From: Nitrospirota bacterium
GTDB lineage: Bacteria > Nitrospirota > UBA9217
Direction of reading: 5' to 3'
Assembly: GCA_963796285.1 (NCBI GenBank)
Contig: CAWCKW010000012.1
Span: 1-64,000, forward strand
DNA: 64,000 bases
Shown: positions 4,312 to 12,759 of the stretch, piece after piece
How positions within the stretch are numbered: position 1 is the first letter of the stretch
Layout: each line of letters opens with the position of its first letter
Made by a program: the position numbers and the translations under genes
Notes under the pieces: model-generated
What the model was told of the DNA's origin: nothing
Databases searched by the model: none
Seen by the model: the letters and a program-made list of their open reading frames with translations, nothing else

Positions 4312-4344
4312 GACAGGTTGTCTTTGCCTTGAGACAGGTTGTCT
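4312..4344. promoter_or_regulatory. Tandem palindromic sites, candidate enhancer (UAS) for a sigma54 activator
   Basis: GACAGGTTGTCT occurs at 4312-4323 and 4333-4344 (21 bp period). Each is a GACA-N3-TGTC dyad, 55-85 bp upstream of a -24/-12 element. Confidence 0.55.
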
Positions 4345-4397
4345 ATCAAATAAGACTTTTAACTATCGCAGGATACTGAAATATTGTACATTTTTAG

Positions 4398-4414
4398 TTG
4401 GCATTGCTTTTGCA
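4398..4414 (+). promoter_or_regulatory. Sigma54 (-24/-12) promoter
   Basis: TTGGCATTGCTTTTGCA has GG-N10-GC spacing and matches the TGGCA-N6-TTGC consensus. It lies upstream of the rhodanese-MCP cluster. Confidence 0.7.
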
Positions 4415-4570
4415 ATTGTTCGTATCGAAGCGAAAGGAGGGATTGCCGGAAACTCTTAGTGATAGTCGTTGTTTGCATTTTTTAACTGAAATGTTTCTAT
4501 TGCGGTGTAAGGCACACTAAACATGAACAAAAAACAGGAGGATAGAATGAGAAAAGAAGAGGAAGGTAAT

Positions 4571-5377
4571 ATGAAAAAAATAGCAGCGGTAGTTGTAACA
4601 GCACTTTTTCTGGTGACATTGCTGAATATGGCCAGCCCGGTGGGAGCTCAGGACTATCCATTACGGGCGCAATATCCCACTGTTAAACCCATCGATACGA
4701 ATGAGTTGACGGCAGCGTATGGAAAGGCAATTATTATTGACGCAAGAAATTCGGCGGAGTATGACGTTATACAGATTGCCAATGCAAAAAACCTCCTGGT
4801 AGGGAAAATGACTGAAACAGATCTCCTGAAATTACGGCCGAAAAATGACAGCACGCTGCTGGTATTCTACTGCAACGGTGTCACCTGTCCGAAGAGCTAC
4901 AAGGCAGCGGAGGATGCGGTGAAATGGGGATTTCAGTCAGTACGGTGTTATGACGCGGGCATATTCGCGTGGGCAAGAATGAATCCCGACAAAACCAAAT
5001 ATTTTGGCGAAGTATTAACTTCTGCCAAACTGCATACGGCTTTGATCTCCGACAGCCAGTTTAAAAGTGTTCTCCTGCCCCCCAAAGAATTTGTCAGCAG
5101 AAGCAAGTCCGGAGAATATACGGTAATCGATATTCGCGATCCGAATGAACGAAGCGAGACACAATTCGGCCTGCCGAAGATGAAGGTTATGTCGTTCGAT
5201 ACGGTCGTGGACCTTGTCAAGAAGCGCAGCAAGGCGATTCCGACGTCCAATCTGTTGTTTGTCGATAACGTCGGGAAACAGGTGCAGTGGCTTCAATACT
5301 ATCTGAAGCAGGCCGGTTTCACGAACTATTTCTTTGCGGAAGGCGGCGTGTTGAAATTAAAGAAGGAAGGTTTTTAG
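4571..5377 (+). CDS. Exported tandem-rhodanese-domain protein
   Basis: Sec signal MKKIAAVVVTALFLV..VGA. Domain 1 has IIDAR..FYCNGVTCPKS..YDAG. Domain 2 has VIDIR..FVDNVG..AEGG, with Asp in place of the catalytic Cys. Confidence 0.85.
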   Translation: MKKIAAVVVTALFLVTLLNMASPVGAQDYPLRAQYPTVKPIDTNELTAAYGKAIIIDARNSAEYDVIQIANAKNLLVGKMTETDLLKLRPKNDSTLLVFYCNGVTCPKSYKAAEDAVKWGFQSVRCYDAGIFAWARMNPDKTKYFGEVLTSAKLHTALISDSQFKSVLLPPKEFVSRSKSGEYTVIDIRDPNERSETQFGLPKMKVMSFDTVVDLVKKRSKAIPTSNLLFVDNVGKQVQWLQYYLKQAGFTNYFFAEGGVLKLKKEGF

Positions 5378-5452
5378 ACACCACTACCCTCCCCCCGAAC
5401 CGGCGTCCGGGGGGAGGCCGCAGGAATGCGTGCTAAGTGAGAGAACAAAGAA

Positions 5453-9883: not shown

Positions 9884-10110
9884 ATGACACGGTATCTGAC
9901 CTGTAAAACGGGAGACGAGGTTTTTGCCCTCGACATCACGAAAGTGCGCGAGGTGCTCGATGTCACGACCATCAATAAGGTGCCGAGGACGCCGGCGTTC
10001 ATGCGCGGCATGATCGACCTCCCGGGAAGCGTGGTGCCGTGGTGGACCTCCGGCACGTGTTCGGGATGAGCAGGACGGAGCAGATAATGAACACCTGCAC
10101 CGGGCAGTAA
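9884..10110 (+). pseudogene. cheW: Truncated, frameshifted cheW copy
   Basis: MTRYLT..FALDITKVREVLD..KVPRTPAFMRG closely matches cheW at 7254. Frameshift near 10038 and 3' half missing. Confidence 0.85.
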
Positions 10111-10222
10111 TCAGTATCACGGTTTGACATCTGATGAGCATTAGCGTGACGCATGAGCCTGTGAACAGGCACCGTACCCGGTCGCTGTCCACTCTTTTCG
10201 GATACCTGAAAGTAATCATACT

Positions 10223-11092
10223 ATGAGCGAGAGCCAGAGATACAGCGAAGGCATTAAAGTGCTGTCCAACAGGGATTTTGACCGCCTGAGCCAGTTCATC
10301 AGCGAACATTGCGGCATCAAGATGCCGCCGGCGAAGAAGACTTTGCTTGAGTCGCGGCTCCAGAAACGGCTCAGGGCGCTCTGCACGCAGTCATTCCGTG
10401 AATACTGCGATTATTTGTTCGAGAACCCGTCTGGGATGAGCGAGCTCGTGCACATGATCGACGCTGTGACCACGAACAAGACGGACTTTTTTCGGGAGCC
10501 TGCGCATTATTCCTTTCTCAGCGAGACCGTGCTGTCGGATTTTAAGCATCATCAGCGAGCAACGGACACTCAGCGGTTTACGGTCTGGAGCGCGGGATGT
10601 TCCTCAGGGGAGGAACCGTATACGCTTGCCATAGTGCTGAGCGAATTTGCCGCGCGATATCCTGGCTTTCAGTTCACGATCATGGCCACGGACATCTCTA
10701 CGAAGGTCCTGGACAAGGCGCGGAACGGCATCTATGATGAAGGCCAGATCGCGATGATCCCGTACGCGCTGAAGCAAAAATATTTCACGCGGAGCAAGGA
10801 TCGCGACAAGAAGCTCGTGCGGGTCGTGCCCGCGGTGCGTTCGAGCGTCCAGTTCGAGCGCCTTAATCTCATGGATCAGCGCTTTCCGGTGCCCGAGGCG
10901 TCGCTGGACGCGATCTTTTGCCGGAACGTGATGATCTATTTCGAGCGCGATACGCAAAACAAGCTCCTCGGAAGATTTTGCCACTATCTGAAAACAGGCG
11001 GACATCTTTTTCTGGGGCATTCGGAGACCGTGCACGGATTCGACCTTCCGCTCATCCGGATCGCGTCCACCATTTACAGGAAGATGCCGTGA
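10223..11092 (+). CDS. cheR: Chemotaxis methyltransferase CheR
   Basis: TTNKTDFFRE, WSAGCSSGEEPY, ATDIS, IFCRNVMIYF and LGHSE. Confidence 0.95.
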   Translation: MSESQRYSEGIKVLSNRDFDRLSQFISEHCGIKMPPAKKTLLESRLQKRLRALCTQSFREYCDYLFENPSGMSELVHMIDAVTTNKTDFFREPAHYSFLSETVLSDFKHHQRATDTQRFTVWSAGCSSGEEPYTLAIVLSEFAARYPGFQFTIMATDISTKVLDKARNGIYDEGQIAMIPYALKQKYFTRSKDRDKKLVRVVPAVRSSVQFERLNLMDQRFPVPEASLDAIFCRNVMIYFERDTQNKLLGRFCHYLKTGGHLFLGHSETVHGFDLPLIRIASTIYRKMP

Positions 11093-11579
11093 ATCGTTTT
11101 GAAAGGAAACTGCCCGTGGCATACCGTAAGTCAGGCGACGTGTATTTCGCTGAACTGTCCACGCTGCTCGTAATTGTCCTCGGTTCCTGCATGTCAATCA
11201 CGATGTTCAGCATCCGCGCGCGACTCGGCGCGATCTGCCATGGTCTTCTGCCTCGCTGTAAAGGTCAAGGGCAGCGCGGCAGAGATGGTTTGGATGGGTT
11301 CACGTATGTGGATTGCTCCATCAGGCGGATGGCAGTGTAATTCTACTCGCAGCGTCAGAGGGCGCGAGATCGAGGTCAAAGGCTTCGACGGGGCCGACAT
11401 GTTCACGCGGGACATCAACAGACGGGAAACGGGCCCTGTTGGAAAACAGAACCTGGTCCTTGCCCAGGAGGTCCTGCCCAGCGACGGACGCTCTCTTAAA
11501 GTATCCGATGTCGGCGGCAGACGCGGACGCAAAATCCTTTTATTATTCGGAGACCGGCGATGTATTTCTGAAAAGCTGA
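11089..11579 (+). pseudogene. cheD: cheD pseudogene
   Basis: VLGSC, AICHGLLP and YVDCSI, then in-frame TAA at 11338 and two frameshifts. The conserved KVFGG is decayed to KGFDG; DVGG..GRKI is retained. Confidence 0.85.
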
Positions 11580-11685
11580 CGAAAGTGAACGACCCGGACA
11601 TCAAATGGTATCAAGCCTGCGAGAAGCGAGCGGTGAGTAACAAGGGTCAAGTGCCAAGTAGCATTGAGCAAAAGGATTAATACGA

Positions 11686-12759
11686 ATGCCAAAAAAAATC
11701 CGCGTTCTGATCGTTGACGATTCCGCTGTGGCCCGCCAAACCCTCGAGGAGGTCCTTTCTTCCGACAACGAGATCGAAGTGATGGCCACGGCATCCGACC
11801 CCTTTATTGCCGCGGAGAAGATCTTACACGAGGTACCCGATGTCATCACGCTCGATGTTGAAATGCCACGCATGGATGGCGTGACGTTCCTGCAGAAGAT
11901 CATGACACAACATCCAATACCCGTGGTGATCTGTTCGAGCTTGACGGATTCTGGTTCGGAAACGGCGCTCAAGGCCCTCGAATATGGGGCTGTTGAGATC
12001 ATCCAGAAGCCGCGCATCGGGACCCGACAGTTTCTTGAGGAATCCAGGGTGCGCATCTGCGATGCCGTCAAGGCGGCGGCCAGTGCGAAGCTGAAGTGCA
12101 TAGACGAAGCGGTCCGGCATGCGGGCACGAAGTTTTCCGCCGATGTGATCCTGGAAAAGCCCATATCCCATGCCATGGCAAAGACCACGGAGAAAGTCGT
12201 CGTGGTCGGTGCGTCCACGGGAGGCACTGAAGCCTTGAGCAATTTTCTCCAGGCAATGCCGCTCGACGCACCCGGCATCGTCATCGTTCAGCACATGCCT
12301 GAGCACTTTACCAGGGCATTCGCTGCGCGGCTCGACGGCATCTGCCGGATCTCGGTTAAGGAGGCGGAGGACAACGATACGGTCATCCGGGGCCGGGCGC
12401 TTATCGCTCCGGGAAACCACCACATGCTGCTCAAACGGAGCGGGGCGCGGTATTACGTTGAGATCAAGGACGGGCCCCTGGTCTCCCGCCACCGACCTTC
12501 CGTTGATGTCCTGTTTCGGTCTGCTGCACGTTATGCAGGCAGGAACGCGATTGGCGTGATCATGACTGGCATGGGAGATGACGGCGCTATCGGCATGCTC
12601 GAAATGAAGGAGATGGGGGCGTTCAACATAGCCCAGGACGAGGAATCGTGCGTGGTCTTTGGTATGCCGAAAAAGGCGATTGAGCTGAATGCGGTCGATC
12701 GCGTACTTTCCTTGAATGTCATCCCGGCCACGGTGTTACAGGCTTATAATGATAATTAA
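11686..12759 (+). CDS. cheB: Chemotaxis response regulator methylesterase CheB
   Basis: Receiver domain plus GASTGG, VQHMP, HRPSVD and MTGMGDDG. Confidence 0.96.

Follow-up and report, generated by a model that had tools for sequence, protein, structure and literature searches.

The rhodanese gene and the chemoreceptor cluster

We analysed the first 64 kb of contig C12 (GenBank CAWCKW010000012.1) from the Nitrospirota bacterium assembly GCA_963796285.1, hereafter the window, for a gene encoding an exported tandem rhodanese that stands immediately before a chemoreceptor gene. The genome comprises 3.58 Mb in 13 contigs, and the nearest relatives of the genes in the window are found in Nitrospirota genomes assembled from metagenomes. 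On the plus strand, from 4311 to 12965, the order is paired dyads, a -24/-12 promoter element, the rhodanese gene, a hairpin, the methyl-accepting chemotaxis protein (MCP) gene mcp1, cheW1, a second receptor gene with a haem-c motif (mcp2), a cheW remnant, cheR, cheD, cheB and a terminator-like hairpin (Table 1). This last hairpin likely marks the end of the operon. An initial annotation of this DNA had listed the dyads, the promoter, a signal-peptide tandem rhodanese, an MCP, cheW, a heme-c MCP, cheR and cheB, and every one of these was recovered where it had been placed. What that list overlooked was that a second cheW is truncated, that cheD is frameshifted and that CheA is missing.

Translation of the rhodanese gene likely begins at the ATG at 4547, which lies 5 nt behind an AGGAGG and gives a protein of 276 amino acids (aa), equal in length to its nearest homologues. 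The N-terminus is a hydrophobic signal of the Sec type that ends at VGA/QD. The protein matched the Pfam family Rhodanese (PF00581) with 59.4 bits over residues 67 to 152, against a cut-off of 22.2, and its second domain alone scored 20.8 bits, slightly below that cut-off. In the AlphaFold2 (AF2) model (pLDDT 93.8) there are two alpha/beta domains. The first carries the active loop C117-N-G-V-T-C122, a six-residue loop headed by a catalytic-type cysteine, and such a loop is presumably of the sulfur/selenium-transfer type. The second has D-N-V-G-K-Q at the loop position and no cysteine, so that both the CNGVTC loop and the Cys-less second domain described in the initial annotation were borne out. 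The fold matches of the model were rhodaneses, the best being the rhodanese-like protein of Francisella (6mxv). The domain pair superposed poorly on known tandem enzymes, with template modelling (TM) scores of 0.28-0.37. The closest solved sequence was BH2092 (E 0.003), whose loop reads YCWGPAC against YCNGVTC here. No NCBIfam model reached its cut-off for the protein; the highest-scoring one, a model for a rhodanese/DsbD fusion-like selenoprotein that matched through its rhodanese part, stayed far below cut-off (41.8 bits versus 805).

The family to which this protein belongs comprises at least 120 protein clusters. Every one of them has PF00581, and their lengths are, with few exceptions, 256-320 aa. 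Conservation was read from an alignment of 38 sequences. A hydrophobic N-terminal leader followed by [FY]-P-L-R is present in 38 of 38 members, and Y116, C117, N118, G119, C122, S125 and Y126 are invariant, which makes YCNGxxC an invariant signature of the family. The Cys-less domain has an invariant motif of its own, G251-x-Q253-x-x-W256-x-x-Y259, together with D-x-V-G-K-Q where the catalytic loop would be expected. Many of its carriers belong to sulfur-cycling taxa such as Halothiobacillus, Guyparkeria, Desulfovibrionaceae, Desulfuromonadales and Geobacteraceae. Culturable carriers include Geomonas oryzae S43 (L044), Geotalea sp. SG265 (L047) and, with a kinase as partner, Desulfovibrio caledoniensis (L091).

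Recurrent pairing of the rhodanese with transmembrane receptors

A conserved linkage between this rhodanese and MCPs in other genomes had been set beforehand as a test of the idea, raised in the initial annotation, that the rhodanese serves the adjacent receptor. A scan of one genome per species yielded 429 relatives, and the counts of genome loci given below refer to the best 80 of these 429. A locus was called linked when a transmembrane transducer was encoded on the same strand within 3.5 kb of the rhodanese. The linkage was found in 37 of the 80 loci, of which 31 encode an MCP signalling domain, five a HAMP histidine kinase only, and one a sensor cut by the contig end. By this test the idea was not refuted. 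The linked loci belong to 11 named phyla, plus four loci without a phylum on record. In 18 of the 80 fewer than 450 bp separate the rhodanese from the start of a sensor domain downstream of it, and in 11 a receptor lies just upstream. Among metagenome loci a transducer was present in 10 of 27; several of the others are short, and a few duplicate genome loci.

The flanks of the same 80 loci served as a control. MCP matches numbered 34 in the 511 kb within 3.5 kb of the rhodanese, versus 2 in 685 kb of outer flanks, so that MCP density near the rhodanese is about 23-fold that of the outer flanks. In a tree of 98 rhodaneses the linked loci occupy one half (56 rows), composed of Nitrospirota, Thermodesulfobacteriota, Myxococcota, Planctomycetota, Omnitrophota, Lentisphaerota, Fibrobacterota, Ignavibacteriota, Bacteroidota and Cloacimonadota. 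The other half, in which hardly any locus is linked, is made up for the most part of Gammaproteobacteria, many with the names of sulfur oxidisers, plus Vibrio. Within the clade of the window's own rhodanese (the window, L115, L023 and L024), four of four members are paired with the same type of four-helix-bundle (4HB) sensor. The rhodanese of L115 is 86% identical to that of the window, and the order rhodanese-then-mcp1 is kept there, the pair sitting behind an MCP-cheW pair.

Larger groupings were also seen around the rhodanese. In L045, L046 and L091, all from Desulfovibrionaceae, it stands between a hybrid HAMP histidine kinase in front and an NMT1-like binding protein behind, the latter followed by a dCache-HAMP-SpoIIE (PP2C) phosphatase. 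L062 holds the cluster of binding protein and phosphatase without a kinase match.

We then compared the partner receptors themselves. All 31 that were aligned contain MCPsignal, and 28 contain HAMP. A sensor domain with a Pfam name was found in three of the 31, namely 4HB_MCP_1 in two and sCache_3_2 in one. In 22 of the 30 partner MCPs from other loci, the periplasmic part is one shared domain of 107-161 aa that belongs to no Pfam family, and the same domain heads the kinase beside the rhodanese in L100. A language-model atlas placed it nearest to CHASE8 and to periplasmic domains of the LapD/MoxY type (score 0.93), which we take as a lead only. We also inspected the 20 best loci of this domain from the phylum (L212-L231, e.g. 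L214:910-3142), which come mostly from one family and are not independent. A binding-protein gene of the Phosphonate-bd/NMT1 type lies directly upstream of the receptor in 14 of them; of the remaining six, four lack such a gene, one carries it at another place in the locus and one is interrupted by the end of its contig. Receptors with the shared domain are therefore usually accompanied by a soluble periplasmic partner. A binding-protein match occurs in 7 of the 37 linked rhodanese loci as well; in most of the 37 the rhodanese is the sole such partner seen.

The 4HB sensor of mcp1 is rare. An exhaustive search of 1.84 billion representative proteins returned nine clusters, a word-indexed search returned only mcp1 itself, and 5 of 401 genomes of the phylum carry the domain. 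Its four closest copies (window, L115, L023/G329 and L024) each stand directly behind a rhodanese of the window clade. The periplasmic part of mcp1 has no cysteine, which excludes a relay of sulfur onto the receptor and leaves docking as the only route for a protein-borne signal. According to a review, binding proteins act on sensor domains of the 4HB and sCache (small alpha/beta) types (PMC8050422). A complex prediction with two copies of mcp1 34-187 and rhodanese 44-284, run on separate alignments, gave a median of 0.45, compared with 0.43 for one control with an unrelated partner.

Full-text literature searches, with supplements and subscription journals outside their reach, found no paper whose title or abstract paired rhodanese or sulfurtransferase with chemoreceptor terms. 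In PMC3543383 and PMC2885270, the passages on rhodaneses concern unrelated ones. Within that literature we have so far found no earlier description of the rhodanese-receptor pair, which appears to be a conserved module and whose basis is so far genomic context.

Promoter, second receptor and history of the cluster

Upstream of the rhodanese gene two dyads, GGACAGGTTGTCT (4311-4323) and AGACAGGTTGTCT (4332-4344), are placed 21 bp apart and about 55-100 bp upstream of the -24 element. The genome contains no second pair of GACA-N3-TGTC cores arranged in this way. The -24/-12 element, TGGCATTGCTTTTGCA, is the sole match to TGGCAY-N5-TTGCW in the window. The chance expectation for such a match is 0.16, and at least one match was found in 13 of 100 shuffles; the motif by itself is therefore not significant. 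It is intergenic, lies on the correct strand, and precedes the ATG by about 130 nt. At the homologous place in G005, a genome of the same genus, both dyads are kept and TGGCATCGCGCTTGCA stands as the -24/-12 element. An rpoN gene is present (C12:449417), and 22 matches to Sigma54_activat are listed genome-wide, of which 19 are strong (E 4e-61 or better). None of these 22 falls in the window, and three window open reading frames (ORFs) of activator size, considered as enhancer-binding proteins, proved to encode TilS, a pyridine-nucleotide disulfide oxidoreductase and a DegP-type protease. Spacing, strand, rpoN, the activators and the upstream site support the element as a putative sigma54-dependent promoter, and the promoter call of the initial annotation gained from the sequence itself, from its conservation in the congener and from rpoN.

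Sigma54 control as a trait of the whole family was rejected, for only 7 of the 107 other loci have a -24/-12-like motif in the 4.5 kb before the rhodanese. In four Vibrio loci (L073, L075, L087 and L095) the rhodanese gene is preceded on the same strand by a ClpB/ClpV-like AAA+ gene and a gene for a GAF-sigma54 activator. This arrangement was left out of the counts of sensory linkage.

Table 1. Positions of the features discussed, numbered from the first nucleotide of the window
Feature	Position	Strand	Description
cheD copy 1	32-579	+	Two frames, shift near 276; ORFs 32-319 and 223-579 are the N and C halves of CheD
GAF-domain protein	739-1566	+	Pfam GAF_3, E 1.6e-15; member of the conserved cluster
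CheY-like single receiver	1641-2015	+	Pfam Response_reg, E 1.1e-26; kept in G005
yeiH-like membrane protein (PF03601)	2236-3290	+	Two frames; Pfam Cons_hypoth698, E 9e-66, profile positions 2-232 of 304
Paired dyads	4311-4344	+	Two of 13 bp with GACA-N3-TGTC cores; candidate site for an enhancer-binding protein
Sigma54-type -24/-12 element	4399-4414	+	TGGCAT-N5-TTGCA
Exported tandem rhodanese	4547-5377	+	ORF opens at 4523; active-type N domain, Cys-less C domain
G+C-rich hairpin	5389-5416	+	In the 75-bp spacer between rhodanese and mcp1; stem of nine G/C pairs, no T tract
mcp1	5468-7156	+	ORF opens at 5453; 4HB_MCP_1, HAMP, MCPsignal; C-terminal EFERF
cheW1	7254-7763	+	Pfam CheW, E 6e-37
mcp2	8101-9792	+	Predicted periplasmic haem-c PAS-like sensor (CLRCH), HAMP, MCPsignal; C-terminal EFEKF
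cheW remnant	9863-10099	+	5' half only, 1-nt deletion
cheR	10223-11092	+	Pfam CheR, E 5e-60, plus CheR_N
cheD copy 2	11089-11579	+	Three frames, two shifts
cheB	11686-12759	+	Receiver plus methylesterase; Pfam CheB_methylest, E 1e-65, and Response_reg
Terminator-like hairpin	12950-12965	+	T-rich tail
LysR-type regulator	19383-20291		Passes a selenium-metabolism-associated model
SorA-like/SorB genes	23401-24946		SorA-like product and SorB-like cytochrome
Cysteine synthase	55960-56931		cysKM subfamily

The cluster encodes no CheA, and the only two matches to H-kinase_dim in the genome are on contig C13. Because CheA is not encoded with the receptors, in spite of the CheY-like receiver upstream, the cluster is an accessory receptor and adaptation module and not a complete chemosensory pathway. 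The database copy of mcp1 has 562 aa. The last five residues of mcp1 (EFERF, 7142-7156) and mcp2 (EFEKF, 9778-9792) each follow a Gly/Asn-rich stretch, and these ends fit the xZxxZ rule for pentapeptides that tether CheR and CheB, as given in PMC7390727. Between the rhodanese and mcp1, the segment 5370-5460 folds with an energy of -33 kcal/mol (z -2.9), and 1 of 200 shuffles folds equally well. A terminator scan made no call at the hairpin in this spacer, and the hairpin could permit different levels of the rhodanese and mcp1 products.

The second receptor, mcp2, has its CLRCH motif between two membrane segments. Homologues of its sensor were present in 17 of the 61 family genomes searched, this genome included, and 25 of 25 homologues keep the two cysteines and the histidine of CXXCH (C117, C120 and H121 in domain numbering). 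The Tll0287-like family PF11845 matched 22 of the 25 weakly (best E 3e-4), and the mcp2 sensor itself scored 14.7 bits, below the cut-off of 24.1. Searches of solved structures by sequence, with the single sequence or with a 25-sequence profile, gave no meaningful match. The AF2 model of the sensor (pLDDT 79.7) found 3b42 (two chains), 3b47 and 5b82 at Foldseek ranks 1-4, with E 5e-4 to 8e-3 and modest TM scores of 0.37-0.49. These are the Geobacter haem-c sensors GSU0582/GSU0935 (3b47, 3b42) and Tll0287 (5b82), which share with mcp2 a periplasmic PAS-like domain of about 150 aa with one CXXCH. Unlike them, mcp2 has a sequence likeness below the Pfam cut-off and modest TM scores, and its haem is predicted from the CXXCH. 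We accept mcp2 as a predicted haem-c PAS-like sensor; the invariant motif and the fold matches agree with the heme-c receptor of the initial annotation.

Comparison with G005 revealed how the cluster may have been assembled. G005 has cheD, the GAF gene, the receiver, the same promoter, the haem receptor (85% identical), a whole cheW, cheR (90%) and cheB (90%), and it has no rhodanese, mcp1 or yeiH-like gene. Its protein preceding the haem MCP is 90% identical to the GAF protein of the window. Nothing in G005 corresponds to the window segments 2029-4267 and 4415-8088, save that paralogous stretches of mcp1 and cheW1 match its haem-receptor gene and its cheW. DNA identity to the haem-receptor cassette is 79-83% for the cytoplasmic part of mcp1 and for cheW1, and neither the rhodanese nor the mcp1 sensor has a relative in G005. 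Besides the species of the window, eight species of the genus were searched, and none has a full-length relative of the rhodanese (best partial match, E 2e-13) or the mcp1 sensor. Promoter, rhodanese and mcp1 are continuous in contigs of public runs (about 94-95% identity), and so are cheW1 and mcp2. Because the rhodanese and mcp1 are missing from these eight species yet present in contigs of near strains, we regard rhodanese, mcp1 and cheW1 as an added cassette, inserted here and in the near strains behind a sigma54 promoter that was already in place. The rhodanese is thus the first gene of the operon here, as initially described, and not its ancestral head.

In another congener, locus L110 (G008:C2:350000-369999) has the order MCP, cheW, MCP, cheR, unbroken cheD, cheB, with other sensor domains. 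MCP-cheW cassettes in this conserved CheA-less cluster therefore differ between species. Such visible reshuffling within the genus, together with the insertion of the rhodanese cassette and its absence from the eight other species, would suit a view in which the adjacency has no sensory meaning and arose by chance recombination with MCP-cheW cassettes, or reflects a role of the rhodanese in the maturation of envelope proteins. We consider this very improbable, because the density of MCPs near the rhodanese is about 23-fold that of the outer flanks, because the linkage is seen in both gene orders, with kinases too and in 11 named phyla, and because the partner receptors have no cysteine or haem motif that would require a maturation factor.

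Several genes of the cluster are interrupted. The region of cheD copy 1 is 88.6% identical to the G005 cluster, and contigs of related strains have one additional T after 276. For cheD copy 2, one short contig of run X1, a run that may be the source sample, is identical over 11216-11600. The yeiH-like gene has its C-terminal part in a separate frame (3087-3290). It lies within the 2.2-kb insert 2029-4267, which is absent in G005 and also holds about 900 bp without a clear ORF; contigs of related strains skip this insert, joining about 2150 to 4196. A PF03601 gene is likewise found just upstream of the rhodanese in L029 (L029:7973-9709), a locus from an unrelated member of the Thermodesulfobacteriota. 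We did not take the frameshifts in both cheD copies and the yeiH-like gene to prove that these genes are decaying, because the dsrA gene that the genome carries on C13 (G000:C13:69167-70310) is likewise split over two frames; assembly indel errors are possible. The cheW remnant differs from these cases in lacking about 250 bp compared with G005. Over 185 nt it aligns to cheW1 with 81% DNA identity and one gap, beyond which homology ends; G005 has a whole cheW in its place, and G005 bases 9045-9295 have no counterpart in the window. A contig of run X3 that joins 7699 to 10151 was rejected as a sign of a strain without mcp2. Since its 108 bases on cheW1 differ at 16 places, it more likely holds an intact second cheW before cheR, as in G005.

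The initial annotation had further noted that the window encodes SorAB, a CysL-like LysR regulator and cysteine synthase. SorA-like and SorB genes, a LysR regulator and a cysteine synthase are present, and a tie to the operon is unsupported, as these genes lie 7 to 43 kb past the terminator-like site with unrelated genes between. The SorA-like product scored 528 bits, below its cut-off of 600, and the SorB-like cytochrome passed with 94.4 against 93. The LysR protein passed the NCBIfam model for a selenium-metabolism-associated regulator (276.5 versus 250), with YeiE next, and the pyridoxal phosphate enzyme at 55960-56931 passed the cysKM subfamily model.

A candidate periplasmic co-sensor

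Chemoreception that depends on binding proteins is described for Tar-MBP, CtpL-PstS, LytS-XylFII, LuxQ-LuxP and TlpB, and the gene of the soluble partner often adjoins the signalling gene (PMC8050422). The pair in the window is like these systems in joining a soluble periplasmic partner to a transmembrane receptor with a 4HB or small alpha/beta sensor. It is unlike them in that the partner has, by Pfam and by fold matches, a rhodanese fold and not that of a solute-binding protein, and the word rhodanese is absent from the review PMC8050422. The pairing thus appears to resemble binding-protein-dependent chemoreception and yet to fall outside it by fold. What is conserved in the partner is a reactive Cys-X4-Cys loop, so that the receptor would be signalled by a covalent state instead of a ligand bound non-covalently.

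Compared with rhodaneses of known type, the protein also stands apart. Three exported rhodanese-domain proteins, Sud of Wolinella (1qxn) and the E. coli proteins PspE and YnjE, hold sulfane sulfur on one cysteine. Sud gave a weak sequence match to domain 2 (E 0.06), and YnjE was among the fold matches. However, Sud and PspE are single-domain proteins, and none of the three has a CNGxxC loop or a Cys-less C-terminal partner domain; to our knowledge, none has been described with a receptor. BH2092 of Bacillus halodurans (3nhv, 3o3w) has the same type of loop and matched the fold of the N domain (target-normalised TM 0.68-0.74), but it is a single domain of about 130 aa, deposited as a structural-genomics entry without a function in its title. 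The classical tandem sulfurtransferases (1rhd, RhdA, SseA and CysA2/3) likewise combine one active and one inactive rhodanese domain. The order is reversed, since here the active domain is N-terminal and the inactive one C-terminal, and the protein here is exported. Superposition on 1rhd, 1uar and 3aay gave TM scores of about 0.3 and root mean square deviations of 15-16 Å. By these sequence and model comparisons the protein is a member of the rhodanese superfamily and not a classical tandem thiosulfate sulfurtransferase. CstR, SqrR and BigR are cytoplasmic DNA-binding repressors that sense persulfide. The rhodanese would share with them two conserved cysteines and a sulfane-sulfur bridge that becomes a conformational signal; it differs in being exported, in lacking a DNA-binding part and in having a receptor as its putative output.

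On the basis of its place and conservation, we propose that the exported tandem rhodanese may be a periplasmic co-sensor for the adjacent mcp1, a tentative reading that we would place just short of probable. The loop Y-C117-N-G-x-x-C122-x-x-S-Y of the N domain would take up sulfane sulfur from thiosulfate, polysulfide or persulfides or, more generally, would switch among thiol, persulfide and an intramolecular di- or trisulfide with C122. Uptake of sulfane sulfur seems the likeliest route, and the second cysteine would permit the bridged form. The periplasmic domain of mcp1 would read this covalent state, as Tar and others read ligand-loaded binding proteins, and the signal would pass via CheW1 to a CheA encoded elsewhere in the genome. 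CheR and CheB of the operon would adapt both receptors through the tether peptides, and mcp2 would contribute a haem-c input of redox or gas. The whole unit would be transcribed from the sigma54 promoter, with an enhancer-binding protein recognising the double dyad. Receptor binding, the nature of the signal, the direction of the response and co-transcription are inferred; the order of the genes, their domains, the signal peptide, the conserved loop, the repeated adjacency to transducers and the kinds of sensor domain are observed.

More doubtful, in our estimate, is the wider proposal of a co-sensor class present in at least 11 phyla, in which the rhodanese displays a covalent mark of sulfane sulfur or redox state to MCPs and HAMP kinases. 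In such a class the rhodanese would fill the genomic and functional place of a solute-binding protein, and chemoreception would proceed by the chemical state of a protein.

A number of observations weigh against the co-sensor reading. No transducer stands beside the rhodanese in 43 of the 80 genome loci, mostly those of sulfur oxidisers; a clade of 31 Gammaproteobacteria rows contains 23 without a transducer and 8 with flanks that are too short, and four Vibrio rows add to these. The 43 unlinked loci imply that the family has a function that needs no receptor. As the loci of related genomes are not independent, the counts show recurrence and overstate the number of separate events. The sensor domains of the partners are of at least two unrelated kinds, so that one conserved docking surface is unlikely. 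Of 401 genomes of the phylum, 152 contain the shared periplasmic domain, as a rule with no rhodanese nearby (2 of its 20 loci have one), and the fetched flanks of three distant 4HB copies of the mcp1 type (35-37% identity, one genus) contain no rhodanese. A fusion of the two partners, for which the initial annotation had suggested a check, was not found at E 1e-5 or better among proteins of 498-2000 aa, which is weak evidence. Finally, a binding protein and the rhodanese occur together in L030, L037, L042 and L064, an arrangement that suits an enzyme acting on the ligand equally well.

The last point leads to the main alternative view, in which the rhodanese is a periplasmic enzyme that produces, uses up or detoxifies the compound being sensed and has no contact with the receptor, co-expression serving only to match metabolism with taxis. 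It might, for example, convert thiosulfate or polysulfide to sulfite and protein-bound sulfur, while the receptor or a binding protein binds the small molecule. We regard this view, in its general form and in the example alike, as unlikely, if by no means negligible. The unlinked loci, the unrelated sensor domains and the loci with rhodanese, binding protein and receptor agree with it, as do the invariant catalytic-type cysteine of the six-residue loop and the anion transporter genes beside the rhodanese, which are yeiH-like in L029 and the window and of the Na/sulfate symporter family in L060. It accounts less well for the tight adjacency and for the spread over 11 named phyla, with kinases as well as MCPs as partners. 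The conserved motif of the Cys-less domain hints at a binding surface beyond catalysis, and the operon encodes no acceptor, transporter or respiratory enzyme for a sulfur product.

The invariance of both C117 and C122 (38 of 38) has a further bearing. One cysteine suffices for classical sulfurtransferases, and the pair might form a reversible disulfide that reports the thiol-disulfide state or oxidants instead of sulfane sulfur, complementing the haem-c receptor. The weak NCBIfam likeness to the rhodanese/DsbD fusion-like selenoprotein points in this direction, and so does the fact that the cassette joined an operon already holding a redox-type haem-c receptor. Yet the taxon range of the family tilts to sulfur-cycling organisms, and the six-residue loop is, as noted, presumably of the type that transfers sulfur or selenium. 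We consider a purely redox signal quite unlikely; it is a variant of the co-sensor proposal, from which the present data do not separate it.

The receptor-level basis by which motile anaerobes and sulfur bacteria find gradients of thiosulfate, polysulfide and sulfide is largely unknown, and most chemoreceptor sensor domains lack an assigned signal. Apart from the rhodanese, the analysis yielded an unannotated periplasmic sensor domain that is common in Nitrospirota and usually comes with a binding-protein gene. If the co-sensor proposal is true, a fold other than that of binding proteins would join the known periplasmic co-sensors, and a rhodanese family that comprises at least 120 protein clusters, and for which no curated model has a name, would gain a role. 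It would also provide a first molecular handle on sulfur or redox taxis.

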